Of a stretch of 64,000 nucleotides of DNA, positions 37,096-61,932 are shown one piece after another. Numbering within the stretch: position 1 is the first letter of the stretch; every line of letters begins with the position of its first letter. Under the pieces are notes generated by a model. It did no database searches, was not told the DNA's origin, and worked only from the letters and a program-made list of their open reading frames with translations. A program made the position numbers and the translations under genes. The DNA comes from Thalia democratica (lineage: Eukaryota), in assembly GCA_965202585.1 (NCBI GenBank), contig OZ241827.1, positions 63,054,001 to 63,118,000 of the forward strand. Reading direction: 5' to 3'.

Positions 37096-37995
37096 AGAAA
37101 TCGTTTTGATTTTCCACCAAAAGATTTATATGAAAATAGATATTGCAACCAAGATGATTTCAGTGTTCTAGTTTGTGGAGGAAAGAATAAACTTTATAAA
37201 AATTGGAAAAGTATTTTCAAACTTAATGGTACCGAACTTGAATATAAACATTATGCTCTAATGCCATATGCACGTAATGAATGTAAAGCGGCAGTTATTA
37301 ATTCTGAACTACTTATATTTGGTGGATATTCAAAAAATAATAAACATGAAAAGTCTATTAGTAAATTCTGTAATAAAAATAAAACTTGGTCGTGCAATAC
37401 ACAAATGTATCTAAATGACAAAAAATTTTGTTTGTGTTTTTTCAAGAAAAACTTGTATGTTATTTATGGAACTAGTTTTTGCTTATACAATTTGAAAAAT
37501 GACCGATGGATTCAAAAAACTAAAATGAATCAAACTAGAGATTTTGCAGCTTGTACAGTTTTTGAAGGAAAAATTGTTGTTACTGGAGGTTTAGTATTAA
37601 ATACAGTTGAAGCATATGATTACTATGAAAACAAGTGGACTTATTTACCTGATATGATTGAAAGTAGATATAAACATTCTTCGATTAACATGGGTAACAA
37701 AATGTTTGTTATTAGTGGAGGATACACTGACGGATTAGGTTGTGAAGTATTTGACATTTTTTCCAGAAAGTTTACTTATATTAGTTCTACCACAATAAAA
37801 AATTTTGATTCATCTAACTCTGAAGCTGTGTGTATTGGTGATAAAATTATAGTGCTTAGTAAGTCTAATTATTGGAAATCAAAACATACAAAAATATTTG
37901 TTTATGATGTTACTAATGACCGCTGGTTGGAAAAGAAGATTGATATTGTCAGTAATTTGACTGGTTCAAATTTTATTAAGTACAGTTCAGTTTAA
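37096..37995 (+). CDS. Kelch-repeat beta-propeller (KLHL-type kelch domain); BTB/BACK head not intact in the flank
   Basis: The frame is open for 299 codons, starting 55 codons upstream of the listed ORF (RNRFDFPPKDLYENRYCNQDDFSVLVCGG...). It has about six blades with GG motifs (VCGG, IFGG, VTGG, ISGG) and Y/W motifs (YNLKNDRW, YDYYENKW, YDVTNDRW). The 5' junction is either a weak AG at 37096-97 or a frameshift. Confidence 0.8.
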   Translation, partial: RNRFDFPPKDLYENRYCNQDDFSVLVCGGKNKLYKNWKSIFKLNGTELEYKHYALMPYARNECKAAVINSELLIFGGYSKNNKHEKSISKFCNKNKTWSCNTQMYLNDKKFCLCFFKKNLYVIYGTSFCLYNLKNDRWIQKTKMNQTRDFAACTVFEGKIVVTGGLVLNTVEAYDYYENKWTYLPDMIESRYKHSSINMGNKMFVISGGYTDGLGCEVFDIFSRKFTYISSTTIKNFDSSNSEAVCIGDKIIVLSKSNYWKSKHTKIFVYDVTNDRWLEKKIDIVSNLTGSNFIKYSSV

Positions 37996-38740: not shown

Positions 38741-41324
38741 TGGTCACGTTTTAATACCCTTTTAGTTTTAATCACAATCAATAGAACATTGCTTTATTTT
38801 TATTCAAAGTATTTCTTTTATTAACTTTATTAATTTCAATGATATTTATATACATAAAAATATGTTTTATATTTTACATATGTAATGAACTAATATTAGT
38901 AACAATTAATACTACGTGGAAACCATAAGACAAAGTATTAATTCTTTACTAACAGAAAAAAGACATAAGCATGATTTGTTTTAAACTCCTGATAACCAAT
39001 CATTTAAAAACTGATTTTGTTAAGTTCATTTAAGTAAAAATAGTAAAACAGCCAGAGTTTTTCAATAAAAACTTCAAACTAGTATAAGCTAGCTTGATTT
39101 TTACAAAATTTGACGAATTCTGAGAATTTCTAAGTTTAAAGCAACACTAAAATGTATTATTTTACACTAAACATTTTAAACAGTTAAACTAAACAAAAGT
39201 CACATTTACATACAAAAAACAAAAAAAATATACTTTATATAAAATGTATTAGTTTTAACCATAGAAATAAATAGCTTGTTTTTAATATTTCATCATATTT
39301 TTTTTACTAGTTTAATTGATTAACAACTGGTGGTTTAACAAACGTATAAAATGTTAAAGAAAAAATTTAAAAGATTCAAAATTTTACATAAGCTTTTATT
39401 TGTAGCCTTTTAACAAAAATAAAGACAAGTAAACGTTATAAATCTTTAAATACTTAAAATAAGTGTTTACTGTATGATTTTAAGCAACTTTTTAAACAAA
39501 TTTTTAATATAGTTTATTTTCTTTTAACTTATGTGTAAAATACATGGTCATATGTAAAGACAAATTAGTAATAGTTTCTGTTTAAATTTTTAAATGTTGA
39601 AACTATTTTTAAAAAATCGTTATTTCTTCTTATAATTTTATATCGACAAGAAAATGTTTTTTGCTTGTCGACATATTTTTTAGCAATTATTTTGTTTGCT
39701 TAAGTAACTAAACAAACACAGTACTTACCATTTTTTAACAGTGTAATCTATATTGTAATATTATTTGATTAAAAACTATATTTTAAAGTTTGAAAACGAA
39801 ACGTTTTGAGAACCAATTTGGATAAAAAATACATAAAGTTGTGAATTCTTTATCGCTAGGTATACTTTAAAGAGTTTAATTTTGCAAGTAAAATAAAAAA
39901 ATATAATACGTTCCAACTATTCTTTATTATCATTAATCTTTACTATTATTAATATTTACTTGATTATTGTTAATCTTATCAAGTTATACTGAAATTCGAT
40001 ATAAATACTAATTTTAGTAAGCTTCGTTAAAAAACAAGCATCTTTTTACTAAGATAATTACTAATTTTTAGCACTTCCTTACGTTAAAACTTCCTTGTGG
40101 CAATTATATATACATATATATAGCAACAAATATTTCAAATAGATATACCATAAATACCTTACTAAAAGTATGTGTATATCAAAAGATAATAATAATAGTA
40201 TTTGAATTCTTAATGTTTTTAGTTATTTATGTTTTGTCAGATACTTATGTGATATGTTTTAATTTTAATTTTAGTTTAAGATGCATTGTTTCGATTGAAA
40301 TGTACTTTAATAATAAAACTAAATAAAATTTCAATTTATTGAATTTTGTAAACATTAAAAAGCATAAAACCTGTTATTCACAATTCTCAGATCTAGAGCA
40401 TAAAAACTTTTAATAGTGTAAAAAATGAAATATATTTTAAATTTAATGGATTTATTATGCTTAAACTCTTATTCAATCATTTTTTTAAGTGACTCATATT
40501 CACAAGTTGCAGTTTCTTTTGTATTTGTGCAGATTCGAACATTTTTTGTTTATAACTGGTTGCAGTGTTAGACGTAGACTATGTCGGTACACCATCTATA
40601 TGTAAGTTTACACTAAAAGTTGCAATATATAATGATAAAAATAGTCATAAATAAATGTATGATCTGGAAGAGTTTCCAGAAGCAAATTTATCTCAATAAT
40701 CAGTGTTTATTTTTTTTCATATTTTAAGATAAATTTGTTATTCATTAACAGCTTTTAAAGCCAAACGGATTTCAAATGGCAACTTTGCAGCTTAGTAAAA
40801 GTTAAGTGTTTATCGTATAAGTATTTGCTTTATTCACATTTTAATACAAAAGCTTAATAGTTTTCCTTTTTCAATTAAAGTTTTTCATTTTTAATTAAAG
40901 AATTTATCATGTGTTTCTGCTAAAAAAACTAAGCTAGTTTTTGCAACTTAGTCTACTTCAGATTAAACAATTTATAAGTTAACTAATCTACTTGCATTGT
41001 TTCAAATGATCATCGCTATTTGTTTTAAGAAAAAGTAAAAAAATAAAGTACTAATTAGTTTTGGAAATACATTATAAGAAAAGAATTATTTGTTTAGTTT
41101 CTTTTTACTCAATTTTGCCTTGTTTAAGTAAATACAAAGGTGATACAAGTGAAGTATAAAAGAATGTTAAGTCTAAAATTTAAAACGTTTGAACAAGTGA
41201 TAATTTTTATTAATAAAACATATGATGAGATAACATTATTAAGATATTTATATATATTAATTCAAGTTTTATCAGTTTTATCATAAACATTAATTTTAAA
41301 GAGTATTTTATAATTTACTGAAAA

Positions 41325-41531
41325 AAGAATCCACTTATGACCATTAACTCGAGTCATTTAAATGACTATGACGCCATTTGTACGCAGAATTAAGACGACT
41401 GCTTGCCACAAAACTCCATGAATCACCACAACCATTTAGTAATGAATCAAATACAACCTGATTTAGATAATTACGATTATCAGCAAGCTTATAGGGACCA
41501 GGTGCAGCCAAGTCACCTTTCACTAGGTCAT
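41325..41531 (+). pseudogene. Truncated 5' fragment of the homeobox gene (start of exon 1 only)
   Basis: Homologous to 42872-43070. The ATG is replaced (tttactgaaaaaagaatcc vs tttactgaaaatgaatcc) and there is an in-frame TAA where the intact copy has TGT. Homology ends abruptly and is followed by a second copy of the upstream region. Confidence 0.8.
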
Positions 41532-42871
41532 TTATCTATTCTTTAGAAAATTATTAAGTTTCAATTACATTAGTCATTACTAATCTTACCAAGTTATACT
41601 GAAATTCGATATAAATACTAATTTCAGTAAGCTTTATAGGAAACATGCATCATTTTACTAAGATAATTACCAATTTTAAACACTTCCTCATGTTAAAATT
41701 TGCTTGTGACTTTACATATATATCTATGTTTAAAATTTTATACCATAAATACCTCACTTGCAGTATGTGTATATCAAAATATATAAATAATAGTTTTTTT
41801 AATTTCTAATTTTATAATTAACTATACTTTGTCAGATAGTTATGTGATATGTTGTTATGTTTATTTTATTATAAGATGCATTGTTTGGATTAAAATGCAC
41901 TTTAGTAATTGAGTATGTTGGTACATAAAACTAATTAAAATTTCAATTTTATTCAATTTCATAAACATTTAAAAGTATAAAACCTGTTGTTTACAATTCT
42001 CAGATCTGGAGCTTAAAAATTCTTGACAGCGTATAAAAAAAATATCTTTTTGACATTTGATTAATGTTTTAAACTTAAATTTTTGTTCTTACATTTTTGG
42101 TTCAAGTAACTCAAATCAGAAATGAGCATTTTTTTTTAATTTTTGCAGATTTAATTGACTTTTGCTCATAACTGGTTGCCGTGTTAGACGTAGACTATGT
42201 CGGATACCAACTGTAAGTAAATCTATACTTAAAGTTGCAATAATTATTTGTAAAAACAGTCATAAAATAGTATATGACTTAAAAGAGTTTTCAGAAGTAA
42301 ACAATTTTCAACACTGAGTATTTTATATTTCTAATTTATTATTTATGTTAAAGTTGATATTCTTTCATAGCTAATTTGATTCGAAATGGCAATTACGCAG
42401 CTTAATAATAACTAAATGTTTATCATATTACTATATTTACTTTCATAAAACTTTGACACCAAAGCTTATAAGTTTTACAACCAATTTTACATAAAGTTAA
42501 GTAATGTATTTAAAGTAAATTAATTTACTTGCATTGTTTTAAATGATTATTGATCTTTGTGAATTGAAAAGGTTTAAAAATTAGAACTGAGTAATTTTAA
42601 AAATACTATATAAGAAAAGAAATGTTGGTGCTTATAATTTTTTTTTTTTTTTAATTAGATTTTATTTAATTTAATTTGATAAAAAGGTGATAAAAACTTA
42701 GTAATAAAAGAATGTAAAAACTAAACGTTGAAACGTTCGAACAAGTGATATTTTTTATTAATAAATTATATGATTAGATAACAGTATTAAAATAATTATA
42801 CATATTTATTTAAGTTCTTTCAGTTTTATTAAAAACATCAATCTTACAGAGGTTTTTATAATTTACTGAAA

Positions 42872-44427
42872 ATGAATCCAGTTACGACCATTGACCCGAG
42901 TCAACTTAATGATTATGACGTCAAATGTACGCGGAATTGTGACGACAGCTTGTCACAAAACTCCATGAATCATCGAAACCGACAACCTGATTTAAACTGT
43001 TATGACTACCAACAAGCTTATATGAACCAGGTGCAACCAAATCAGCTTCAAACAGGTCATTACCCGACCAATGCTCAGTTCACAGATCAGATTGTTAACA
43101 ACACTCGAAAAGATGACGGTTGTTTTTTTCAACAGCAATCTTGTGATTCTGAATGGCAAGATTTTAGCTTTCAAAATGATGATCAGTATAGCAGAAAAGA
43201 TACGTCTTTTCAAAATAACGGTCAGTGTGTCAAGCAAGATATGTATCCACAGGACAGTTACAACATTCATGACCAGCAGCTGTATAATCCTTTACAACTT
43301 GATAGCAGTCAACTTATTCGCCAGCAACAAATTTCTACAAATAGTTTTGCAAATCCACAACAACTTGATAGCAGTAAGCTTATTTGCCAGCAATTAATAA
43401 ATACAAATAATTATTATTGTTACGATTCACATAAAAGTTACATGCCAACAGGTATATATTTTTTTGATGACAAACATGTAACTTTTAACAAAAAATAGTT
43501 TTAATATATATGATAGGATATACTAGTGGACGAAGTAACACGGTGGTTCATTCTGCAAATTATTCTACAAATTATGTAAGTAGAAAACACTTGCTAAACT
43601 TTAGTAAATTTAGTCTCAAGTTCAGAGTAATGTTTTTTAAACTTTAAAGATTGTTTTATATTACTTTAAATATCAACTAATCTCTAACACTAAATATTTT
43701 CAGGGATTTCAGAAGCCTATGGAGAGCCAAAATAATTTCTCATCAGTTAGAAAACTTTCTAAGCTAAGAAAGTGAGTTAAATAATTGATTAAAATTTCTT
43801 CTCCCTATTTTTGTTATAAAATACTTAGAAATTTTTAGTAACTTTATAGCATTAAAACTACAGGTCTTTTAAAATGTAAAAACATATAGAAAAAGAATAA
43901 CTATGACCTCCGATCAACTGTATCATATGGAGAATTGTTTTTACAACATAACTGCTTATCCATCAGTGTATAAAGCGAATGAACTTGCACAAATAACTCA
44001 TCTTTCGTTCAAAGAACTCACGGTTAGTGTTATCTCAATAGTTATTAGAATAAATCAGTTGAATTAACTTTCGTTAATTTTGCGTTCTTTCGAAGCACAT
44101 AATCAATTGCAGCTTTTTTTTCTGTATGAAAACTAACTTTGACATATTTCTCTAATTAATATTTGTTTTAAATGTTTTATTATATTACATATTTACTATG
44201 ATGTCTTTGTTTAGAATTTTTTATACTTTTATTTTGTTTCTAGGTAACCGAATTTAACGAGTTTTTGCTGTTCAATGAGTTAATTTACTCTGAAGATTAC
44301 GATGTTAATTTTACTAAGTCTTTATTTTTACCTTATCTGTTATTTAATATCTATACATTTTTTTCAGACCTGGTTTAAGAATAGACGCACAAGAGATCGT
44401 AAACTTGGATTGGAATTAAAAAGATGA
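42872..44427 (+). CDS. Divergent PRD-class K50 homeobox protein, copy A (299 aa)
   Basis: Exons 42872-43451, 43517-43575, 43704-43771, 43890-44022 and 44368-44427; all GT-AG and phase-consistent (900 nt). C-terminal homeodomain LRKKRITMTSDQLYHMENCFYNITAYPSVYKANELAQITHLSFKELT/TWFKNRRTRDRK with R5, L13, F20, W48, F49, K50, N51 and R53, and an intron between codons 46 and 47. Confidence 0.9.
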
Positions 44428-45728: not shown

Positions 45729-47848
45729 TAATTAAATATATCTTTTTTGGTTGAGTTTACTCACAAACTAATTACAAGAATGATAAAGTCTGTAATACAA
45801 AACATAACTAAAATTAGGTAAATACTTCTACATCTCTCCTAAGATTTTATCTACTAAAGAGATAAAACTATAAATTTACCTAGCAAAACAATTTTTTTAT
45901 TAAACAATTTGTTACAACTTAAACACTTTTTTCAGGTCTAAAATTCAACGAAATTTAACTCAAAAAGGCAAAAACATTTCAAAAATTACGATTAACTTAG
46001 TTCACTAATAAATGATTTGTTAAAACAAACTACAACTTAAACAAACAAACTGTAACAAAAAATTTGAGACTTAATTTTTACTTTTCTTCACTCAGTTGCT
46101 GAACACAAGCATTTAAAAACTTAATTGCTTCACCGATTTGAACTTTTCAGCTTTGAAGAACGAAACTACACGTCATTCATCTAACCACCTTGAAACTTCA
46201 CTTATTTTGCTAATAAACATCTTTATCATATTTTCGACTTTAAACAAAGTAGAAGGTGCATTACTGATAGCATTAAACACTGACGAAATACTGCTACACT
46301 TATTTTCCAAATACTCGATACCAACCAACAGTTCGAGTTTTTGAAAGTCAATCTCTGCGTCCTTATCCAAGATTACTTTGAACAGATGGCTGTTAGACTA
46401 GTCTGCTGCAAAGTCAACTAAAAACTTTAGGACGTCACCATTGGACTGAAACTCATTTATTAGACCATATATAAAACAATAATTTACAGTGAATATTCAA
46501 ACTTGACAATAAATGAATATCAGCAACATCGGTGGCACGAAACTTATGAAAATCATCGTAAAGTTTTACACGGAAACGGTGCAAATAATCCGATAATTTC
46601 ACACACTCATCCCGAACACATTGTTGTTCGCAGTAAACTTTGGCTGTCTGTTTGCTCTCTGTAAAAAATATAAGTCAAGAAAATATAGATCGAAGCAAAT
46701 CCGAGCCATTCCAGTTCTGCATCAATTTCGAAGAAAACCATTAGTACAGAAGGAAATTACACAATGCTTCACAAAAAGAATCTTCCTTATATAAAAACTT
46801 AGAACATTAAAACTTTTCTTGACATCTTTTTCTCAACCTTACAGAAAAGACAAACTTTTACAGTGGTATGTTTGCCTTTCTCAGATAAGGGATACTACTT
46901 AGAGAATTGCAAACAGGAGGGGTAAATCTTCTCAGAAACTTACGATTTTGAGCAGTTAAGCGACCTGATCCATCAACTTTGACAACACATTGATGGCAGT
47001 CCTTCACTTCCACCACCACTTCACTATTCCCCCAGTTGCTAGGAAAGTTACCTGTTCGATTTAGTATCACGACATGATCACCGCAATTCAGTGGTGGCAA
47101 CGATTTTGTGTTCTCACTTATATTTTCCAGAGACTTAACAAAACAGATACTGAGAGATTCTTCCTTTTTATTCCAAACGTCACGCCACATTTTTGAGATC
47201 TGCGGGTTATTGTAGGTCATAACACTCTTTCTGACGTAAGGTAATGACTTCTTTAAATTTCGTCGCGATCCAGTGTGTAAAAGTACGTTTTTCTGTCCCT
47301 GTACCTCCTTTTTCTTCTTCGCGTTTTTCCGCTCGAACAAATTTTTTCTACAACCTCGGCTGCAAAGGCCATCACAGTTTTGTGTATACAATCCACCAAC
47401 TAGAAATGCATTTGACTCATCAGCATAATTTTGATGACTTTGATAAACTTTTTTACGGGACTTTATCCAGCATTTTTTAAAGGCAAAACACTCAATATAC
47501 CTCATATTTTTACTGCTCCAAACAAATTTATCAGTTGATTTATTACGTATGCTACAAGTTGTTTTACCACTTGGTTTTTGTGTGGTTTTCCTTAAGGATT
47601 TGCATACATTTGCTGAGTACATTGTTGTGAATGATAAGCAAAGAGGCAACTACAGAAGCATCGACGTCTGGTGTTTCATATGTGCAACTCTCAAGAGGGC
47701 ATTTATCACAGGCATTGTTGATTCAATTCAGCTTGACTTTATCATAAATAAATATATCTTTCTTGGTTGAGTTTATTCACAAACTAATTACAAGAATGAT
47801 AAAGTCTGTAATACAAAACATAACTAAAATTAGGTAAATACTTCTACT
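45729..47848 (-). mobile_element. Older internally deleted Ty3/Gypsy LTR retrotransposon with about 104-bp LTRs
   Basis: Direct repeats 45729-45832 and 47745-47848 (offset 2016, about 4 mismatches), with a PPT-like AGGAGAGA directly before TGTAGAAG of the 3' LTR. The frameshifted gag start MPV(I)..CPLESCTYETPDVDASVVASLLIIHNNV at about 47715 is fused to an integrase C-terminus (WRDVWNKKEESL..LPPLNCGDHVVILNRTGNFPSNW..VVEV...VVKVDGSGRLTAQNRKFLRRF, 47200-46930). No RT is present. The element is absent from the paralogous site near 63030. Confidence 0.75.
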
Positions 47849-47949
47849 AAAAGTTAATATAACTAAATACTAAAAGTTAAAATTTTATTTATTTTAAGAG
47901 ACATAATTACACTGTTTCACCGCAATGTGGATTTTCAAATTGTTAACCT

Positions 47950-48456
47950 TGTGACGATCGCTCGGCCCTTCGGTACTTTCCCTAAACGGAGCCGGCGGTC
48001 GAGACTTCTCTGTTTCGCTAACAACGGGTTCAGGCGCGTTGGCTGACTCAGAGCGAGTAGTCATTTTGGCCAATTTTTTGGCAACTTGTTTGGAATTCAT
48101 ATCGCGCTACTTATCGATTAATATACCGCGAATGAATGGTCAAGTAGTATAAGTTAAAACACCAAAAACGTATAAACACAATTATTTATTAAAAGAACTC
48201 ACAACATAAAATATAAAACACCAAATACACTCTATAATCGTAAGTAAATGAACACAAATATAATATAATACTAAACTAGCAAAAAGTAAACACTGACTTT
48301 TGTCTATTCGTCTATGCGATCAAGAAGCGCATGCGATAAAAAGCATGCGATACAAAAGCGACGTAATCGTTCATGCGTAGTATATATAGTGCTTTAACAA
48401 TCCCTTTTTCCCAATTCTCTCAATTTATAACAGAGCATGTCTGTTAGACTGCTACA
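47950..48456 (-). repeat. 3' LTR
   Basis: Identical to 53226-53732 except 48099 (a) vs 53375 (t). On the minus strand, a TATATATA lies near 48380-48387 and an AATAAA near 48185-48190. Confidence 0.95.
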
Positions 48457-51166
48457 CTCCGTCTAGCCCGAAGAAGAAATGACTGTGGAGGCTTAGGGAT
48501 TTCAATAACGCATTTTCCGTGCGCTCCCCTTCCCCCACTCCAGTCATTTTTTTTTGAATTAAATGAGAGTATGGAAATTGTAAGGATGTTATTATCACTT
48601 ATACCACGAAATTCGATTACGTGCAATACTAAACAAGTTTTTAATACACAAAGCATAAAGCTTAAAATAACGTTGATGTAGTGTTTACTTGTAATGTAAG
48701 CTAAAAGAAAAAATTGTATGTACGAAAAAATTTGATGTAATTTAAAAGCGACAAAACATAAAAAATAAATACGAAGAAGTAAAAACTTAACGCTTAAGAT
48801 TCCTTCTTTTAGAAAACATGCTAATAATTTGTTGATATTGTAAAGTATGCAACAATACTTAAAAAAATGACAATGTAAATCAAAAGTAGCAATTAGCAAT
48901 ATCACACTAATACTTAATAAAACATATCAAAGAAGTTTTCACTCTTTTGTTTTATAATTTCATTTTTGTTTTTAAGGTATTAAAATTTTGTTTTAGATGT
49001 GCCATAAAATTAAAGAAACAATGATTTGAATTCAAAAAATAAAATATATAATAAAATAAACAAGCTTTAAAATTTTAATTAAAAAATTCAAAAGTTTACA
49101 CAATCCTAGAATTATGTTACTCAATCCCTAAAAAAGTTTACTGTTTGTTGGTTCTTAGCAACTTGAAACAGTTCTATAGTCTGTAGCCAATGTTTTTCTC
49201 CACTTCTCGTTGAGATAAAATGGGTGGTTCCCGCAATGAATATCACAGTTGTAATAAAACAACTAGATGCTAAAACGGTTAAGCATTTCCACTGAGTGGC
49301 TGTGACTGCTAGCGAAGTCTCTTCCACATCGTGATATTCGTGAAACAATGACGTGTCAGCGATTACCAGTGCTTCATCTTTTTTTCACGAATTTTGTACA
49401 GTAAACGTGTGAATCTCCATTTGCAACCAAGTAGGACTCATTGTGACAAATTAGGTCTCCTAAAGACTCTTTATGGCGTCAATACTTCCATCCATTGTGA
49501 TTGTTTATTTAAAAAACATATGTAATATAAAATACAATGTTAAATATAGCGTAAACATTAAAATAGTTTAATAAAATCGTCTAGTTTATTAACTAAACAT
49601 TGTATTTATAATGATATTTACTATTTTCACGTTAACGTAAAATATAAAGTAAGCCCTGATGTCAATCAATAACTGAAAGAATGCTTCAACCGGCCGATAT
49701 AATTTTAAAACAATTAAATCGCAGACTTTTTGTTTTTTGAAAAAACTTAGTTTTATTTTATTTTTATAGTTATTTGAAAATGACAACGATAATTAGCTTT
49801 CAATTTGCTTAACGAGGTATAATGTTTATTTAACAATAGCTATAATCATTGCTACACGTCGTAAAAACCAATCCGCTGAAGCATTCTCGCAATGTTACAA
49901 TTATACAAGAAAAGATGACATTTACGGACAAAAAAGGTTAACGATTTACAACTCATTTCCCTTACTTTGAACTGAAACAGAAAAAAACTCTAACTGGTTT
50001 TTAAAGACCTTAACAATTAAGAAAAGTCATTTGTTACAAAAAAGTTTAAACACTGTGTTTTAGTAAAAAACACTGCTCCTAATTAACTCAGTCAGAATTC
50101 TCATCGATCGCAGTTCAGAATTATTGTTGCATAATTTCACTACAACAATGCAAATTAAATTTTTTGACTTAACTTATTAAGTTTCAAATAGGCTTCATTA
50201 CATATTTCATAGTGCGTTTAAATTTTAATTTTTTTCCTTTAATAAGAAGTAAAACAACAATTGAGAAATAAATTGTCAAAAGAACATATCAGTGTATATA
50301 AAATGTGGGAGTTAAAATCAAAGCAATCGTTCTGCATTAATTTTAAAACAAGTACAGGAAATAAGTTGTTTTGAAACGATAAATCAACAACAACTCCTAT
50401 TTATTTAAGAATATATCAAAAGTAAACATTCGATATTTTAAAACAAAAAATCATATATATACTTGTTTACTTACGTAATAGATTGATCATATACTCCTTA
50501 AACATTACTTGTTTAACAATTTTTATTCTATGTTATTAGTATGAAAATCAAATAATAACAAAATTTGCTAATTCAAGGTAAAGAAGAATTCTTAGTTACT
50601 ACGTTTGAAAATTGTAACAATTTCAAACCTATTTAAAGCTTAATTCTATGTTAAAAAGTGTATCACGAATAAAAAATAACTTATTACGTTTAAACGAAAA
50701 GAAATATAAAAAATACTAATATTTAAGAAAATAGAAAAAAATTAACACAAACAATAAACAAAACTGACATTAATCGAAATTAATTTTTAAACTTTGCAAG
50801 CATTTTAAACGAAAACAACTAATTTTTAAAGAATGTAGATCAAAATACAAACAAAGAAAATAACAAACATGTATTCAACATTTTCTTAAAACTTGACCCT
50901 TCATTCAAGAAGAAAAAAATATGTTAATTTTGCTAAAAGACTAAACTTGTTAGTAACGCTTCTTTTTATGAAGAAAAACATCAACGCGTGTTTGATAAAT
51001 CGCAAGTTTAAAATACACGACCTTTTAACGTGAGCTTTTTCTTTTTTGCTGCGCAAAGCTAAACAAAAACTAAATTAGTTTTATTGCTAAACGCTAAAAC
51101 TCAAGTGCCGCTGATAATAATTTAATTGCTTTGTAGAATTAGTCATCGCTCGGTTCGTCAGCGTAA

Positions 51167-51826
51167 TTAATCGTGAACTTGTATTTTACGCAACTTATAA
51201 GGTTGGCTTATTTTATTTACTGGCTCATTGTAAATAATGTTTCGCTGCTGATATCGCTTAAGATGACGTATATTTTTAAATGGTTTACTTGTGGACGAAT
51301 TATTGTTTACAAGTAATGAACTTGAATTGTAATTATTTTTAGAAGGATTGATACAATCTGTATTGTCAATAACTTCAGAATTTTGATACGGTTCCTTGGG
51401 ACGTTGTTTTTTTTGCTCGTTATTGACTATATGCGTTTCTGCACTTGTCATATTAACGGATTTTACGGTCGGCACGGGTAGCCTTTCCACAGTCGAAGGC
51501 TGCTTTGTTATGACGTCACAATAGGCTTCTGCGCTATTAACCTCGTTACTATCTTCAACCGGCGCGAAAGACGTCGACTGTTGTTCAGCATCAACCTGAA
51601 CATCATCTGTCTTGCTAAAATTTTCTGACTCTGTTGACTCGTTTCCCGATTTAAAAGAAGTCTTAAGGTTACTAATATCGCCGCTAAGGTGCTTTAACGC
51701 GGTTGATTCTGAGTCGAAATCAGTTTGCTCAGATGTTTTAAACACACAGCCGACTGTCTTAGCAAGAGGTGGCTCTCCCCTCTCCTCCCTACCTCTTACT
51801 GTCGGGAGGAGGGGTGCCCGTTTTTT
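51167..51826 (-). CDS. -1 frame ORF2 fused to Gag by programmed frameshifting; about 217 aa, low complexity, no Pol catalytic motifs
   Basis: The frame opens just upstream of the slippery site and runs KKRAPLLPTVRGREERGEPPLAKTVGCVFKTSEQ...NIRHLKRY...PYKLRKIQVHD*. It is S/T/E/N/K-rich and has no DS/TG protease, YxDD or D,D35E motif. Confidence 0.6.
   Translation of the reverse strand, partial: KKRAPLLPTVRGREERGEPPLAKTVGCVFKTSEQTDFDSESTALKHLSGDISNLKTSFKSGNESTESENFSKTDDVQVDAEQQSTSFAPVEDSNEVNSAEAYCDVITKQPSTVERLPVPTVKSVNMTSAETHIVNNEQKKQRPKEPYQNSEVIDNTDCINPSKNNYNSSSLLVNNNSSTSKPFKNIRHLKRYQQRNIIYNEPVNKISQPYKLRKIQVHD
51761..51826 (-). promoter_or_regulatory. -1 programmed ribosomal frameshift signal (slippery heptamer plus H-type pseudoknot)
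   Basis: A_AAA_AAC in the Gag frame (51826-51820), then a 5-nt spacer. Stem 1 is CCCCUCCUCCC (51814-51804) paired with GGGAGGAGAGGGG (51789-51777). Loop AGUAAGAGGU (51800-51791) is complementary to downstream ACCUCUUGCU (51770-51761). Confidence 0.8.
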
Positions 51827-53340
51827 TGATTAAAGGGGCCCTGCCGGTTATGAAAATTTTGGTTGTTTGGGGAATGCCCTTGACTATGAAAACTTTGATT
51901 GAATGGAGGCCCTTGACTTTGGAAGTTACTTGGACCTTGGGTATACCCTGAATTATTATATCTATTGTTAACCTGAACGGGGTTCTGGTTAAAAACTTGG
52001 CCGTTTGGTGGCATTATATTCTGATACTGCATGTGGTTCGGCTGAACGTTGCCGAACCCCATGTTATTGTTCGCTACGTTCTGATAGTTTACATTACTGT
52101 CGTAACGCGTGTTTTGATTATTATAATCGTTTTGTTGATCGTATTCAACTTGATTACTTTGATTATGTCTATAAGGGCGACGCGAAGATTGCTGTACATG
52201 CGAATTTTTATTATTATTTTGTTTCTTTTTATAAAAATTCTGCGATCTTTGCTCATAACGAAATTCTTGAGCTTTTTCTAGAATCTCCGAGTGAGATCCA
52301 GAATATATCTGTTCAATTTTCACTAAAAAATCGTCTAATTTAAGCGTAAAAGCTTCTTCAACTTTCTTTTTTAGTTCGATTGGACATATAGCTGACATAA
52401 AATACTTTATCATACTTCCCTTATCAGCTTTAGACAACTTTTCAGCTAGGCACTTATCTGACTGGAAAGACGCCTGCCCTAAGGTACTCTGTTTAAATCG
52501 AAGTATGTGTGGCAAACTAGATTTTTTGCCAATAAGATAAGTTTTTAAATTAGGGTAGTTAAAATGACACTCGCTATTAGTTTCGCGAAAATCAATTATG
52601 TCATCTCGAGGCCAAATATGAATTAATAACTCAAGTTTCTCACGATCGCTATCGATATGAAACGACTTACAGCGCGACTCGAATAATTCGAGTTCCGCGC
52701 GAGGTTCCGAAATATTTCGAAGTTGTCTAAATAACTTCGCATTTTCGATTATCTTACGGCGCAATCGATCTTGTTCAGTTTCAAAACATCGAGCGCCGTT
52801 TTCTAAGTTATAAACATTGTTATTATCTGACAATGATTCTGTCATTAGCGCACGTAACTTGCTTCGTAAAGCGTTCGTGCGACGATTTTCTTTTATTGTC
52901 TTAATCCTTAGCTCTAATTCGCTTAGGCTAAGATTTTCTATATCGTCCTGCCTATTACTAAGGTGCGGACTAACTTGTACAATTTCAGCAGCGTTTCTTT
53001 GATAAATCGAAGAGGGCGAATTTTCTACGCTCGCTGTATACAAATCGTGCGTATTTTGTGGACGCAAAGAGGCGTTATAGTCCCCCTTTGCTTCTGGTAC
53101 GCTATTAATATTTTGTTGGTATGCGGAGGCATCTGTGCTCTGCATACCCGCTTCGCAATTCTGTCTTCTCGATAAGGTTTGCTTTTTGGTTATAAAAACG
53201 GGTTCGGACCCGGGGAGGACGCCACTGTGACGATCGCTCGGCCCTTCGGTACTTTCCCTAAACGGAGCCGGCGGTCGAGACTTCTCTGTTTCGCTAACAA
53301 CGGGTTCAGGCGCGTTGGCTGACTCAGAGCGAGTAGTCAT
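51796..53340 (-). CDS. gag: Gag-like protein (514 aa from the first ATG) with a capsid-like core and an N/Q-rich C-terminus
   Basis: Intact ORF in the gag position. The core ELFESRCKSFHIDSDREKLELLIHIWPRD...YPNLKTYLI...IKYFMSAICPIELKKKV resembles Gypsy capsid helices by eye. There is no CCHC knuckle. The track start at 53349 is a TTG; the first ATG is at 53340. Confidence 0.8.
   Translation of the reverse strand: MTTRSESANAPEPVVSETEKSRPPAPFRESTEGPSDRHSGVLPGSEPVFITKKQTLSRRQNCEAGMQSTDASAYQQNINSVPEAKGDYNASLRPQNTHDLYTASVENSPSSIYQRNAAEIVQVSPHLSNRQDDIENLSLSELELRIKTIKENRRTNALRSKLRALMTESLSDNNNVYNLENGARCFETEQDRLRRKIIENAKLFRQLRNISEPRAELELFESRCKSFHIDSDREKLELLIHIWPRDDIIDFRETNSECHFNYPNLKTYLIGKKSSLPHILRFKQSTLGQASFQSDKCLAEKLSKADKGSMIKYFMSAICPIELKKKVEEAFTLKLDDFLVKIEQIYSGSHSEILEKAQEFRYEQRSQNFYKKKQNNNKNSHVQQSSRRPYRHNQSNQVEYDQQNDYNNQNTRYDSNVNYQNVANNNMGFGNVQPNHMQYQNIMPPNGQVFNQNPVQVNNRYNNSGYTQGPSNFQSQGPPFNQSFHSQGHSPNNQNFHNRQGPFNQKNGHPSSRQ
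53207..53224 (-). promoter_or_regulatory. tRNA primer-binding site
   Basis: TGGCGTCCTCCCCGGGTC begins 1 nt after the 5' LTR and is complementary to a tRNA 3' end ...GAGGACGCCA. The isotype was not assigned. Confidence 0.75.
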
Positions 53341-53732
53341 TTTGGCCAATTTTTTGGCAACTTGTTTGGAATTCTTATCGCGCTACTTATCGATTAATAT
53401 ACCGCGAATGAATGGTCAAGTAGTATAAGTTAAAACACCAAAAACGTATAAACACAATTATTTATTAAAAGAACTCACAACATAAAATATAAAACACCAA
53501 ATACACTCTATAATCGTAAGTAAATGAACACAAATATAATATAATACTAAACTAGCAAAAAGTAAACACTGACTTTTGTCTATTCGTCTATGCGATCAAG
53601 AAGCGCATGCGATAAAAAGCATGCGATACAAAAGCGACGTAATCGTTCATGCGTAGTATATATAGTGCTTTAACAATCCCTTTTTCCCAATTCTCTCAAT
53701 TTATAACAGAGCATGTCTGTTAGACTGCTACA
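53226..53732 (-). repeat. 5' LTR
   Basis: 507 bp, TGTAGC...GTCACA on the minus strand. It contains the Gag start codon. Confidence 0.95.
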
Positions 53733-56700
53733 ACCTTATGAAAACATAACCTTTTTATTTGAATAAAAGTTACAGTTTAAAAGTCCGCTTTGCGGTGAAA
53801 CAGTGTAATTATGTTTCTTAAAATTATAAAATTTTAATTTTCAGTCTCCTTTTTGGATAGATTACTCTGTTAAAAATTTAGAGTTAAACTAAAATTTATA
53901 CATAATTAAAATTAAATAATATCACATTTATAATTTTCAAAGTTTAATTCCTAAAATTATTCTAAATTTCATTGAGAATTTAGGTAGTTTAAAATTAGGC
54001 CAACTTTTGCCTTTTTCGAAGTTAAAAACTTTTATAATTTTACCTAAAAGTAAGAACATGTTTAAGTTTTGTTTATTTTTTTTTATTTGATATTTATTTA
54101 GATATCTTATTCACTTTATAAATACTGATAAAAAACTTTTTCTGCTTTTTTACAATTTCAAATGCTATGGAAAAAATAACTACTATTTTCATACAATCTG
54201 CTTTATGAAACTACTTAATTAAATTTTCAAAAATGGCAGAAATTATTTTCTGAACTTACACAGAACTCACAACAAATTAATTTATTGTTTAAATAAGGTT
54301 TAAATTGCAAAAATTTTGTAAGTTTTGTTTATAAGTTTAGTTTAACTTGTTCTATATCATCTAAATGTTTTTCTAGCTTTTATCACAGATAGTCGAAAGA
54401 ATTGCAGTGTCTTAAAGTTACTTTAAAAAAGGTAAATATTGAGATATTTTATTGTTAGTTTCAACATATGAATGAGTTTAAGCATTTTTAAAAGTAATTC
54501 GGTACTAAATTGTGAAGTTTAGAATCTAAGTTTTGAAGTTTGTTTCTACATCTTTTTAGTTCTAGTTCATTTTTTATTACATAGTTTAACCTAACACATG
54601 TCATTATAATTGAAAATAATTCTAGTAATTTTAGCTTGAAATATTTTAAAGTTTTAAAAAAAAAACTGCAGTTTTTATTCTAATTAGTTATTTCTTTTAA
54701 GTAAAAATAAAAAATTTTTGAATGATATAAACAAGGAGCTAAACATTGGTTTAAAATAAAGCAATTATTTTAAACCTTAGTTGCTGAAGGTGTCAAAAAA
54801 AGACGTCAAAAAAAAACCTTTCCTTAAAAAAATAAAAATAGTTTTTATTATCAAATTATAAATTTAATCTATTTTTAATCGTCTATTTTTGATTTAAAAA
54901 GTAAACAGACATTTCAAAATTCAAACATTTTTATATTTTAAAAATAATAAGTAAGGAATTAATTTTATATATCATGCCTATACCATCAGATACTAAACCT
55001 TGTTTAATTTTTTAAGAAATCCTTCTTAAATTTTTCCTCAAACTTAGATAGTAAGACACGTTGCGTAGAACAAATTCAGAACTTTTAACTTTTCGAAAGT
55101 TAGTTTTGGATTAGTACTCTTGATATTTAAAGTTTAAGTAGCAAGTGTTTGAGGCTAGTGGTTCTAGATAAAATATTAAGGTGCAATGTAAAACAATAAA
55201 AATGTATATATTTCACTAAACTTTTTCTTGTTTTTATGCCTAACAAGATTACTTAACCAGTTTTTAACAAAAGTTTATTTTTTGACACGAGTATTCTAAC
55301 TATTAAAGTTTAAGTAGCAATGTTTAAAGGTGTAGAGGTTAAAGGTTATTAATTGTAAAATATTAAGGTATAATGAAATCAAAGTAAAATAAATGTCAAT
55401 TTTTCACTATTGTTGTTCTTGTTTATATATTTTTTAAGCTTCATAATTAATTTTCAGTATAAGTTAAACAAAAAAACCATGCTTTGAAAAACTAGCTCTA
55501 TTTTATCGTACCAAAACAAAACATAATTTTAGTAAAAAAACTTTCAATGTTTTAATAGTTTTATTTAATATTTTTTTTAAACTAAACAATTCACTGACTT
55601 TTGTCTTACTCAGTACGTCGTTTAGATAAAGATCTAGAAGACATACATCTGAAACTTTAATCCATTAACATCTTAATTAAACTTAAAACATTACCTTATA
55701 AAAACAGCTATTACACTGAGAATAGATAATTGAAAAGAAAGCTCTGAGATTCAATATAAAAAGACGAGGTAAAGTAAGTATAACTGTACGCGGAAAAAAA
55801 GGAGAAACTTTTTTTTTGTAAATTATTTGAAAGTACATAAATAAAATATATGTTTTTTAAATTTAAAACGCCCGACATAAAAAAGTATTTTTTTTCATTT
55901 AATATTCACTTTTGTAAAACAAACGTTAATTTCAATAAAAATTTGAATGAATATTTTATCTGAACTTATATAAATTACTTTTTGTTTTATTTATATGTTT
56001 TTTTAAACTGAAGAACTTGATATCGAAGATGTAAAATTTACGAAATGTTTAAAGCTCTGGTAAAGTCTAAAAAAAACCATCAAAAATAGTTAATTTACTT
56101 GTGATTATTGGGAAAACATAAAAAAGTTGTAAAGTAACAAACTTTATAAAGCTTTTGGTGTAGACTTATTTATATTGGCTTTATTATGTAGCCCTCTGTA
56201 TATTTGGTAGTTACATTTGTATTAAATATAGTATTTTCATAGTTTTTTTAGTGTATAATTTACCATTATGTAATGGAGTAATACTAATTTATGTGAACAA
56301 TAATTTAAGTAAAATCATACCAATGTATTTAAAGACTTGTTTTTGAGTCTGGTGGGCTAGTTAATTTTTAAAATTGCTTTAACTGAAATGTAAGCTTACT
56401 TATCTATAAAAGTGAATTTTTTGGTAATATATATTTCATGTAAAGCTAAAGTAATATATTGCAAAACAAGTTCACTAAAGTTAATGCAAATTAACTACAT
56501 TTCACAAAATATATGTATTACATCTATTAATGACGATTAAACAGCTACTTTGTTTGTAAGCTACTTATGTTTTAGTTATAAGTTACAAATATGTTTTTTT
56601 ATTTCATAAACAAAAATAAAAGATTAAACTATTTAATAATAAGTCAAAGTTTAATTAACATATCACATGCTTTTAAAAATACTAACTAAAAAATCTAAAC

Positions 56701-57670
56701 AATATACATAAAATATATGTTTATATTCTTTTGCCTTTTAATAATAATCAAGCCAAGTAAACGTTATAGATATTTTAATGTTTACAATAATCGATATATG
56801 TGTAATTTTAAGCATTTTCAGATACAATTTTTTAACATTATTTATTTTATATTTAGCTTCAGTGAAGAGATACATGATCATAAACAGAGATAAATAAATA
56901 AATGTTTCAGTTTTTCTTGACATTAAAACTCAATAAAAAGTATTTAGTTTTATAAACAACTTTTATAAGATACACAATTTATTTTGCTTAAGTAACTAAA
57001 CAAACACAGTACTTACCAGTATAATAGTGTAATCTATATTTTAAACTTTAGTAAGAACAATATATTAAACTTTATAAACACAAAACACTTTAATACTTTA
57101 TTTGGGTCAATAACTAAATAATGTTGTGAATTTTTAGAAGGTAGGTTTGCAAGCAAAAACAAATATTATAGTACGTTCAAATCATCTTTGAGAAAATTAT
57201 TAAGTTACTATTTCATCAGTTTAAGTAATCTTATAAAGTAGTACATACTGAAAAATGATATAAATACTAATTTTAATAAGCTTCAGAAAAAAAAATGCTT
57301 ATTTTTACTAAGATAATTACTAATTTTAAGCACTTCTTTATGCTTAAACTTCCTTATGACTACTATATATATATAGATATATATAGCTATATTTGAAATT
57401 AACTATATCATAAATATCTTACTTGAAGTATGTGTATATCAAAAGATATTAATAATAGTTTTTTTTTTCTTTTATAGTTGAGTATATGTTGCAACTTTTT
57501 CTTAGTTTAGAAGACTTTGTTTAGCCTTAAAAATGCTTTAACAATTGAATCTGTTAGTACATAAAACGAATTCCAATTTCAGTAGGCTTCATTAAAAAAC
57601 ATGCATCGTTTTACTAAGATAATTACTAATTTTAAGCACTTCCTTGAGTTAAAATTTCCTTTTGACTTAA

Positions 57671-57674
<4 letters not shown>

Positions 57675-57714
<40 letters not shown>
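57675..57714. repeat. (AT)20 microsatellite
   Basis: Direct reading. The paralogous positions (about 40105, 41717 and 57363) carry only short AT runs. Confidence 0.95.
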
Positions 57715-57718
<4 letters not shown>

Positions 57719-59990
57719 CGAGCAATGTTTAAAAAAGCTATGTCGTAAATACCTCACTTGAGGTATGTCAAATGAGTATATCGAAAAATATTAATACTAG
57801 TTTTATTGTTGATTCTTTAGGTTATTTATTTGTTGGCAGATAGTTTATGAGATATGTTTTAATGTTTGTCTTAGTTTCAGATGCCATGTTTAGATTGAAA
57901 TGTACTTTAACAATTGAATCTGTAAGTAATAATAACTAATTCCAATTTAGTTTTTCTCGATTTAAGTAAAAACAAAAGTGTATAAAACCTGTCGTTCGCA
58001 ATTCTTAGATTTAGTGCTTCAAAATTGTTAATAGTCTACAGTTATTAGAACTTTATTGGTTACTACAACTTTATTTTAGCATTAATAAATTTACTCTTTT
58101 TATGTATGGTTCAAAAACTATAGCAGTACAAATATATCTATTGAATTGAAATAACTTTAAACAGTCATTTGGACTGAAATACTTAAAAGCATTATTCCAG
58201 ATACCTCTCTATATATGATGTCATAAAGAAAATCCAACTAACTAAAACATCAACATCATTTGACTCGTATATATACGAGCTTTGTTGAATTACACATTGA
58301 ACGAATAAGTTATTAACTGCAAAAAATAATTGTCAACTGATAACCCCCCCCCCTTATTTTGCTACAAAATATTTGTATTGTAAATATTTTTACACTCTTC
58401 TAAAACATTTTCTGAGGCAGTGGTCGTCAAGCTGATAAAATTCTGTGCACACTAAACTGCAAGAATAAATTTTGAGTTTTCTAAACTACGCCGCAAGTGG
58501 TAGGAACACGTAATCAACTTATATTTCTATACAAGGATACTGCAGAAATTTCTGCGCTTTGTTGTTAGAATCTAGCTAGTTTGTTTTAAAAACAAATTTA
58601 CTCAAAGTTACGGACTTCTTTATGTTCTTAATAAAAGTTGTTTCATTAATCTTGTTTTTACTACAATATTATTATTTGTATTGCTCAATACTTACTTTAA
58701 GAGTCACATAGAAAATGATCATTCTTAAAATACTTACAGAATTTAAGTGGAATTCGTTCCGCGAGAGGTAAAACTCACATTATATATTCTAGAAATTAAA
58801 ATGTGTATGAAAAAGATATAAACAAAAGTTTTTCTTATTTAATTTTTTTTGCTATTTATATGTTGTAACTTCTTTAAGTTTAAGATATTTTGTTTGGTTT
58901 AAAAAATACTTAAACAATTGCGTCTCTTAGTACATAAAACTATTTCAAATTTAATTTTTATTGAAATTAGTAAACATTAAAGTGTATAAAACCTGTTGTT
59001 TACATATCTCAGATCTAGAGCCTAAAAAAATCTTAACAGTGTAAAAAAGGTATATCTTTATCACTTAATGAATATATTGTGGTTAATTTTCTTTTAATAT
59101 TTTTGTTTAAAGTGACGCAAATCATAGGTGAGCAAGTTATTTTGTATTAGTGCAGATTCGAACAACTTTTGTTGATAAATGGTCGCAGTTTTAGTCGTGG
59201 GCTACGTCAGAACACTGTTTTTATTTAAATGTATAGTTAAAATATCAATATTTAATTCACAATAGTGGTTATAAATGAAGATTACGACTTTCATTAGTTT
59301 CCAGAAGTAAGTATTTCTCAAAACTCAGAAACTAATAATTTTTCTCGTATATTTAAATATAAAGTTATTACCCTTTAATAGCTTTTAGAGCCAAACAAAT
59401 TTGAAATGGGAACTCTGCAGATTAGTAATAACTAAAAGTTTATCATATTAGTATTTATACTTGATTTCATGAATTTTGATACCAAATCTTAGTAGTCTTT
59501 CATTCTTAGTTTTAGCTTGTTTGCTTGTTTTTGTTCAATATACCAAGTAAATTTTTGCAACTAAGTTTACTTGAGATTAAGTAATGTATTTCAAACAATT
59601 TAATCCATTTTCATTATTTTTAATGATTATTGCTATTTGTAATTGAAAAAGTATTAGAATTAGAACTGAATAGTTTTGAAAATATTCAATAAGAAAAGAT
59701 ATATTTTTGCTTACAAAGTTTGTAATTAAATTTCTTTTAAGTGAATTTTATTTAATTTAACTTGATTAAAAAGTGTATATTATTTAGATAAAGAAAATAG
59801 TAAAAGCTCAACCTAAAAACATCTCAACAAAATAATATGCAACTTTAATGATATTTTTTAATAATACAAATATATGATAAGATCACAGCATCAAATTATT
59901 TAGTACATATTTAATCATTTTTTCTCACTAGTTAAGAGGTATAACGTAAACAAAGTTGATTCTACAGTCTATTTTAAAGTTTACTGAAAA

Positions 59991-61932
59991 ATGAACTTTA
60001 CAAATTCTACAAATCCAAAAACTCATCAAGATGCACAACAAACTGATCCACTTGTGATCATTGATCCGAGTCAACTTTATGATTATGACGTCATATGTAA
60101 GCGGAATTGTGACGTAAGCTCGTCAAAAAACTCAATGAAGCACCAAAACCATTTAGTTATAAATCAAAGGCATCCTGATTTAAATTTTTACGACCATCAG
60201 CAAGCTTATATGGACCAGATGCCACCAAGTCAGCTTCAAACAGGTCATTACTCGACCAATGCTCAGTTCACAGATCATATTATTAACAATAAAGCTGATG
60301 GTCGTTCAGAATATCAACAACCATCGTATGATTCTGGAAGGCAAGAATTTTGCTTTCAAAATGATGATCAGTATAGCAAGAATGATACTTCTTTTCAAAA
60401 TAACGGTCAGTGTGTCAGTCAAGATATAAATCCCCAGGACAACTACAACATTCATGACCAGCAGCAACACTTTGAAAACCCACAACAACTTGATAGCAGT
60501 AAACTTATTAGGCAACAACAATACTACACAAACAGTTTATCAAATCCACAACAACTTAATAGCAGTAAGCTTAAATACCAGCGACAAAAATCTACAAGTG
60601 GTTTTGCAAATCCACAACAACTAGATAGCAGTAAGATTAACTACAAGCGACAAACTTCTAAAAACAATTTTGCAAATCCACAACAACTCGATAGCAGTAA
60701 ACTTATTCGTCAGCAACTAAGTTCTACAAATAATTTTTCAAACCGAACTTCTACAAATACTTCTGCAAATCCACAACAACTTGATAGCAGTAAACTTATG
60801 CGCAAGCAACTAAGTTCTACAAAGAATTTTTCAAACCAAACTTCTACAAACAGTTCTGCAAATCCACAACAACTTGATAGTAGTAAACTTCTGCGCCAGC
60901 AAAAATTTTCACCGAGTAAGTATGATTGTTACCAGGCACAAGAAAATTACATGCCGACGGGTAAGTGTTTATTGTTTTTTGCAAATGATAAACATTAACT
61001 TTTAGAATGAATATAATTTTAAAATTTATGACAGGATATACTAATGGACAGTGTAATACAGCAGTTCATTCTACAGATTATGTGAGTAGAAAGTAATTTT
61101 TAAACTTTAGTATATTTAGTCGCAAATTCAGATTTTTTTTAAGTTAAATATTAAATTTTGTTTTATTACACTTTGTATTTTAAGTAATCTCTAAAACATA
61201 AATTTTACAGCGACTTCAAAAGCATATGGAAAATCAAAATAACTTTCCATTAGTTAGAAAACTTTCTAAGCCAAGAAAGTGAGTTATTCTAATGATTAAC
61301 ATTTCTTATTATTATTTTCGTTACTGTATACTTCAAATTTTTTGTCACTTGAAAGCATTATAACTACCGTTCTACAAAAATAAAATTAAAAACCTATTTT
61401 ATAGAAAAAGAATAACTATGACGTTCGATCAACTGTATCATATGGAGAATTGTTTTTACAACATAACTGCTTATCCATCGGTGTATAAAGCGAATGAACT
61501 TGCACAAATAACTCATCTTACATTTAAAGAACTCACGGTTAGTATTATAAGAATAGTTTATGAGAACAAACCTGTACAATACACTTTCCTTAAGTTTACG
61601 TTCTTTCGAAGCAAGTTATCAAGTGCAATATTTTTCTGTATGAAAACTAACTTTTACTTAATTTCTATTTAATACTTTTTAAAATATTTTATTTTATTAA
61701 ATAATTATTATGATGCCTTTGTTTAGATTTTTTCATACTATATTTTGTTTCCTACTAACCGATTTTCATAAATTAATTACTCGAAGTATTTTGATATTAA
61801 ACTTACTTATCTTTTATTGTAACCTTAAATGTTATTAGATATTAACGTGTTTAGAGAGTTTTATTTTTTCAGACCTGGTTTAAGAATAGACGCACAAGAG
61901 ATCGTAAACTTGGATTGGAATTAAAAAGATGA
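59991..61932 (+). CDS. Divergent PRD-class K50 homeobox protein, copy B (425 aa)
   Basis: Exons 59991-60960, 61035-61081, 61211-61278, 61405-61537 and 61873-61932; all GT-AG with the same phases as copy A (1278 nt). Homeodomain PRKKRITMTFDQLYHMENCFYNITAYPSVYKANELAQITHLTFKELT/TWFKNRRTRDRK. Confidence 0.9.
60477..60900 (+). repeat. Coding tandem repeat NPQQLDSSKL x6 (units of 22, 22, 22, 31 and 31 aa)
   Basis: aatccacaacaact(t/a/c)gatagcagtaa recurs six times in exon 1 of copy B. Only two units are present in copy A (about 43285-43400). Confidence 0.9.

Follow-up and report, generated by a model that had tools for sequence, protein, structure and literature searches.

We found that a 5783-bp LTR retrotransposon (47950-53732, minus strand) in the 64,000-nt stretch of DNA that was analysed (the window) houses an A_AAA_AAC frameshift signal at the end of its Gag frame, followed by an open -1 frame, ORF2. 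Our preferred reading, to which we give a probability of about one half, is that a Gag-only element inherited a gag-to-pol -1 signal, that its ORF2 is a pol-side frame from which the protease was deleted, and that the resulting Gag fusion and a basic motif near its end have been retained. The signal is real, its origin is mostly ordinary, and the conserved tail is a testable question.

A young, multi-copy retrotransposon without enzymes

The element is bounded by two 507-bp LTRs (5' LTR, TG..CA, 53226-53732; 3' LTR, 47950-48456; both on the minus strand) that are identical at 506/507 positions, with one mismatch, and by 4-bp target site duplications beside the 5' LTR (53733-53736) and the 3' LTR (47946-47949). 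One base after the 5' LTR lies a PBS-like stretch that begins with TGG (53207-53224, minus), a candidate primer site for which the window holds no tRNA gene to compare, and a weak polypurine tract (48457-48470, minus) adjoins the 3' LTR. The Gag ORF (51796-53340, minus; 514 aa from the first ATG), whose frame starts in the 5' LTR, is followed by ORF2 (51167-51826, minus) and by an AT-rich 2.7-kb stretch without recognisable genes (48471-51166, minus) that is common to the copies of the family.

Neither RT nor integrase was found in the element or in any relative that we recovered, and tblastn with P0011, a protease-bearing relative, detected no protease in the window. Pfam matched none of nine short ORFs of the element (eight of them from the non-coding part, the ninth antisense to Gag), and Rfam returned 0 matches at E<=1 over 47700-54000. 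Contigs from four read runs covered 30, 30, 30 and 29 of 30 element bins with many variant copies, and the element is therefore a multi-copy family. The named runs that contain this family are mostly marine metagenomes, and the host is presumably a marine animal; two RNA runs had small word shares (0.05-0.06), which are not evidence of expression. Near-identical LTRs, a target duplication and many copies set the element apart from an immobile host gene of the PNMA type. It is a young, multi-copy, enzyme-less retrotransposon, and its Gag, its protease type and the 4-bp duplication point to Ty3/gypsy.

Two long contigs (X1 and X3) match the end of ORF2 as far as 51083 and then show no match for more than 1 kb, which suggests sister subfamilies with a different non-coding part. 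The element is enclosed by 64-nt inverted repeat arms (84%; 47880-47943 and 53772-53835) and adjoins a very-high-depth repeat at 47700-47910, and it was probably inserted into a small palindromic element.

A capsid-like Gag

Pfam had no family for Gag, and Foldseek with the Gag model gave no match at E<=0.001. By language-model features, the conserved core lies nearest to Retrotrans_gag clusters (Atlas 0.93), which we treat as a lead only. Structural comparison, which rests on a low-confidence model, points to a capsid-like lobe confined to Gag residues 189-278 (52507-52776, minus), where 8 of the 50 best matches, all of them retroelement capsids, scored Z 4.8-6.5 (the tool's bar is 8); the best was a Copia capsid (Z 6.5, rmsd 3.1, 81 aligned), and Arc, PEG10 and MLV CA gave Z 4.8-5.6. 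The last 150 residues are 40% N+Q, and there is no zinc knuckle in the Gag end because Gag 361-514 contains no cysteine. This N/Q-rich end (52248-51799, minus) is prion-like by composition. A 13-residue unit in Gag differs in copy number among relatives.

The Gag frame opens inside the 5' LTR and crosses the primer site (53382-53207, minus), and it likewise runs from the LTR through the primer site in P0001, P0002, P0030 and P0032; P0031 leaves the LTR end into unrelated sequence. The sole mismatch between the LTRs falls within the codon at 53376-53374, which is the starting point of P0030 and P0032, and the first in-frame Gag ATG of the window's copy lies 12 codons past it. Gag residues 39-115 (about 53190-53000) are only 53-57% identical to P0001, P0030 and P0032, the flanks of this block are 97-100% identical in P0030 and P0032, and a joint seen in 3/4 runs is consistent with this. 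It looks like a swapped block directly after the primer site.

A frameshift signal with a predicted pseudoknot

The original prediction described an A_AAA_AAC heptamer in the Gag frame with a 5-nt spacer, and we located the heptamer at 51826-51820 (minus strand, Gag codons 505-507) and the spacer, between heptamer and stem 1, at 51819-51815. Downstream, a predicted H-type pseudoknot (51761-51814, minus) encloses the Gag stop. In stem 1, 51814-51804 pairs with 51789-51777; the 11 bp proposed for it were borne out, but the 2-nt bulge was not, since 8 + 3 bp with a 1-nt bulge is more stable (-22.0 vs -19.6). Stem 2 pairs 51800-51791 with 51770-51761, and its coordinates agree with the 10 bp, single G-U and internal Gag UAA (51798-51796) that had been described. 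Loop 1 is 3 nt long, one base is unpaired between the stems, and the further loop is 6-7 nt.

The summed stacking of the two crossing stems (-37.5 kcal/mol) ranked first among 2523 heptamer positions counted over the two strands of the window, where the next independent heptamer site reached -23.5, and it was attained by 0/1000 dinucleotide shuffles (best shuffle, -37.1). The nested fold of the region is unremarkable (z -1.64; 15/200 shuffles equally good), which is what one would expect of a signal that resides in the crossing stem. The -1 frame extends without a stop from 51829 to 51167, and the 217 codons and ~724-aa product first proposed are recovered when the trans-frame product is counted from the ATG at 53340 (507 + 217 = 724 aa). 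A zero-frame X_XXY_YYZ heptamer, a spacer within 5-8 nt, a downstream structure and an overlapping open -1 frame, the marks of frameshifting that we took from the available text of PMC11299033 and PMC5009743, were all found here. Among the 40 sibling differences listed of 606, none falls in the signal. Ribosomes are predicted to shift at this site and to make a minor 724-residue Gag fusion.

ORF2 and the deleted protease

As originally noted, ORF2 lacks protease and RT motifs (Pfam gave 0 families at E<=1); it also has no sequence match in the PDB, and its composition suggests disorder. Homologue searches returned 5 and 6 matches and cluster look-ups more, with 15 of the 17 members of the largest cluster listed. 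ORF2 had been taken for a non-Pol ORF, which these relatives contradict: both of its halves align to P0011, at ORF2 31-105 (32%) and 109-212 (57%), and between the two blocks P0011 carries Asp_protease_2 (32.8 bits vs a 24.3 cut-off; DTG at 124), so that the window is 176 codons shorter at 51511-51499 (minus). P0004, a 147-residue fragment, is 80% identical over its residues 1-81 to ORF2 29-109, the acidic pre-protease linker (51512-51745, minus), and then enters the same protease with its DTG; the linker is 32% identical to P0011 1-77. The P0011 and P0004 alignments identify ORF2 as the pol-side frame without its protease, and we are highly confident, for the deletion origin alone, that it arose by an in-frame loss of that domain.

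The suggestion that a pol core was excised in frame thus stands for the protease (P0011, P0004), and for RT and integrase the loss is presumed. P0011 stops where ORF2 stops, with no RT in frame; RT, RNase H and integrase would have been lost earlier, before the protease. P0011 may represent an earlier Gag-protease-tail stage, a stage that we only infer, given its short contig and the fruitless search for an autonomous parent. In its AlphaFold model (mean pLDDT 32.9) the protease is mostly unfolded, and the model is therefore uninformative on disorder of the tail.

These alignments also bear on the proposal of a repurposed switch that gives Gag a novel, non-Pol acidic tail, which we regard as very improbable. 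Such an origin would accord with an ORF2 that has no Pfam or PDB match, and PNMA3 and PNMA5, as described in the text available to us, show that such tails exist; however, P0011, which carries a protease, aligns with each half of ORF2, and the long acidic tail does not hold up, as ORF2 has a net charge of +1 (pI 7.8), with only its first half acidic (residues 29-109 net -11, residues 110-219 net +8). P0011 and P0004 appear largely to refute a new origin.

The window's junction and open frame are common to 15/15 full-length ORF2 records of the family, and in the more distant P0005, P0007 and P0034 the junction is likewise in frame and 8 residues longer; a single loss with later trimming would fit, and so would repeated losses. 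The junction is bridged by 4 among the 28 contig records listed (~85, 87, 88 and 98% identity), and a further 75-nt in-frame skip in ORF2 occurs in 2/4 runs. A search with P0011 among 2913 candidate proteins of 637-2000 aa found no autonomous parent, which is weak evidence, and the 6 matches among 50%-cluster representatives are all <=186 aa. DNA of relatives was found neither in JGI metagenomes with Gag or P0011 as queries, nor in viral contigs, nor in prokaryote genomes scanned with the signal pattern. The element presumably borrows its enzymes from a helper.

The terminal half of ORF2 and the integrase question

A resemblance of the ORF2 end to integrase tails had been proposed from PYKLRK and, in an adjacent frame, INYADEPSDD, and no search supports it. 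Among 34 protein records, 23 reach the terminal motif; 20/23 end two to four residues after YK and 3/23 have the window's longer ending. PYKLRK therefore marks the rarer ending and lacks conservation, and neither ending type brings INYADEPSDD into frame. ORF2 110-219 matched no integrase end in Pfam or among PDB sequences, and hhalign of the tail with a neighbouring ORF (46858-47649) gave a probability of 0.1. A one-base length difference at 51191, present in most of the depth of all four runs, matches the two ending types; we considered it as a break in the window's copy and rejected this, both endings occurring in open records and the shorter being commoner.

The neighbouring ORF (minus strand) lies in a 2-kb piece at 45734-47847 flanked by ~100-bp direct repeats and has no Pfam match below E 0.07; its end resembles a gypsy integrase tail by motif, and the ORF is unrelated to ORF2.

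The second half of ORF2 could be where a separate pro frame natively ended and not an integrase end, in which case the parent had pol in another frame or pol was never in the lineage. We hold this possible but doubtful. P0011 and ORF2 run colinear for 104 residues and terminate at the same point, no search by any method matched an integrase tail, and no long relative was found (weak evidence); pulling the other way, a P-Y motif ~40 residues upstream of the conserved block bears a loose likeness to the integrase GPY/F motif (consensus WxnGPyxV in the text available of PMC1224870; also PMC2577118), although its glycine is missing in every record.

Is the tail retained for function?

A basic 28-residue motif near the end of ORF2 (51197-51280, minus) is better conserved than the 75 residues upstream of it, with 24/28 vs 34/75 identical between ORF2 and P0011 and 23/28 vs 40/75 between ORF2 and P0034. 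Across three lineages, the motif is the better conserved stretch in 6/6 pairs among ORF2, P0003, P0011 and P0034 (Fisher p 0.0003-0.02, with a motif boundary chosen after viewing the alignment and pairs that are not independent). The conserved 28 residues hint at a retained role; RNA constraint or recent recombination could also be the cause. We judge the odds that the ORF2 tail has kept a role as protein to be even.

The open frame itself points both ways. In favour of retention, the neutral chance of meeting no stop in 102 post-junction codons at 54% identity is ~0.07 (substitutions only). Against it, an unselected ORF2 would be stop-free at 5-10% divergence with a probability of 0.10-0.29, and the count of open frames is biased because protein records exist only for open frames. 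Four records start at an internal Met, the end of P0007 is shifted, and neither P0005 nor P0008 reaches the tail. Among the 7 ORF2 differences listed (from 40 of 606), 4/7 are non-synonymous.

A rival reading takes ORF2 for a passenger remnant, in which the protease was deleted recently in each lineage, the signal and the open frame were inherited and have no present role, and only Gag and the cis signals matter. We consider this a serious possibility, though not a probable one. The linker is 56/61 identical to protease-bearing P0004 and shares 4 residues with it against 15/15 siblings, and the window's intact pseudoknot may thus be a recent inheritance from a protease-bearing element. The mosaic blocks in Gag and ORF2, the appreciable chance of the frame staying open at such divergence, a post-junction ORF2 identity to siblings (82-94%) below that of the Gag core (94-98%), and the free variation of the last ORF2 residues fit the same picture. 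It sits less well with the same junction in contigs 12-15% diverged, with two junction types and a further skip that are all in frame, and with a tail motif kept between two protease-less frames, ORF2 and P0034.

Conservation of the motif was seen at the protein level only, and we also considered a constraint at the level of RNA or translation, with the peptide incidental: the 84 nt could be a packaging or dimerisation signal, or passage of ribosomes past the Gag stop could stabilise an RNA whose last 3 kb are untranslated. The 2.7-kb non-coding stretch downstream of ORF2 would suit the latter, and the title of an IAP paper cited in PMC7411935 names translation of a non-autonomous element as a determinant of its transposition. 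On the other side, there is no Rfam match, and the two listed differences near the motif, one synonymous and one just outside it, are too few to decide. We think this account improbable.

Under our preferred reading, in which the fusion and its motif are retained, the element would be transcribed from its LTR and most ribosomes would make Gag, with a minority shifting and adding 217 residues. Particles would assemble with enzymes from a helper and take up the fusion via its Gag part, and the basic motif of the tail may give an advantage to the element's own RNA or promote entry into the nucleus; the frame would then likely have been kept open for these 28 basic residues. A more tentative extension, which we think unlikely as a whole, is that a parasite shed RT, integrase and then the protease (perhaps repeatedly), each in frame, as the motif of the fusion gave its RNA an edge in shared particles. 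If true, PNMA3/5 would have in this element a counterpart that still moves, with intermediate stages alive in one family, and the role of frameshift tails of the PNMA3/5 kind would become testable.

Relation to known systems

Each ingredient is already known, from TR-GAGs, Sabrina/WHAM, PNMA3/5 and IAP 1-delta-1, and the signal itself is textbook. TR-GAGs are non-autonomous LTR elements that encode Gag only (PMC4350172, PMC9784723). Like them, the element has LTRs and a target duplication around an intact Gag, together with a candidate PBS and a weak purine tract, has no protease, RT, RNase H or integrase, and is multi-copy and apparently mobile in trans (PMC4350172). Unlike them, it is 5.8 kb long (vs <4 kb), has two ORFs joined by a -1 signal (vs a single ORF) and a 4-bp duplication (vs 5-bp), and is not from a plant; the word frameshift is absent from the main text of PMC4350172. 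The element works like a TR-GAG but is outside its definition on length and ORF number.

The wheat elements RLG_Sabrina_SA and RLG_WHAM are semi-autonomous Gag-protease Gypsy elements (PMC9744471). An intact protease after Gag of this kind is not in the window and is present in P0011 and P0004, and P0011, whose frame includes neither RT nor integrase, fits the same Gag-protease stage. In both cases there are also co-existing derivatives that code for less (PMC9744471); however, as far as that text describes them, Sabrina derivatives replace the Gag-Pro region, whereas the window's lineage keeps Gag and deletes the protease with the frame left open.

A retained frameshift without pol had been called unusual, yet PNMA3 and PNMA5 provide a precedent, a Gypsy-derived Gag with a -1 shift into a disordered frame that holds no Pol domain (PMC11299033, PMC5009743), whose products have no known function according to the text available of PMC11299033. 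The heptamer, the H-type pseudoknot and the -1 shift are alike, the pseudoknot and the shift being predictions here; PNMA3/5 are genes fixed in the host in which no similarity to Pol can be recognised, whereas ours is a mobile LTR element with a deletion history legible from its relatives. IAP 1-delta-1 encodes a fusion that arose by deletion and benefits its own RNA (PMC7411935). As in our element, it is non-autonomous, an internal deletion yields a Gag-Pol remnant fusion, and a helper is needed (a presumed one here); in IAP 1-delta-1, however, gag is fused directly to pol and Gag is supplied in trans, whereas our element has a complete Gag, and its fusion would be a minor product of frameshifting.

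In CsRn1-like Ty3/gypsy elements, gag and pol overlap by a -1 frameshift in 9 AgCR elements (PMC2582038), and the 4-bp duplication and the -1 gag/pol overlap are shared with ours. Unlike CsRn1, our element is missing the CX2HX9CX3C (CHCC) motif, with no cysteine in Gag 361-514, and has no RT by which to place it. Helenus and Ajax, considered as relatives, encode no protein and were set aside as not applicable (PMC10886601, in the text available).

In the literature covered, mostly open-access main texts and few repeat databases, we found no mobile element with a -1 signal into a protease-deleted frame. What is noteworthy here is one family whose protease-bearing and protease-less members all share a single conserved terminal motif. 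Should selection on it persist after the enzymes are gone, frameshifting in retroelements would have a use beyond setting the dose of Pol, and the family would illustrate how genes like PNMA3/5 can arise; if not, the element is an ordinary deletion derivative.

Other features of the window

Elsewhere in the window, an intron-less Kelch-repeat ORF of 299 aa lies at 37096-37995 (plus strand). Diverged duplicated units of about 1.55-1.6 kb occupy 40000-44050 and 57250-61560, and these units carry Q/N-rich ORFs with internal repeats (42833-43498 and 59988-60998).
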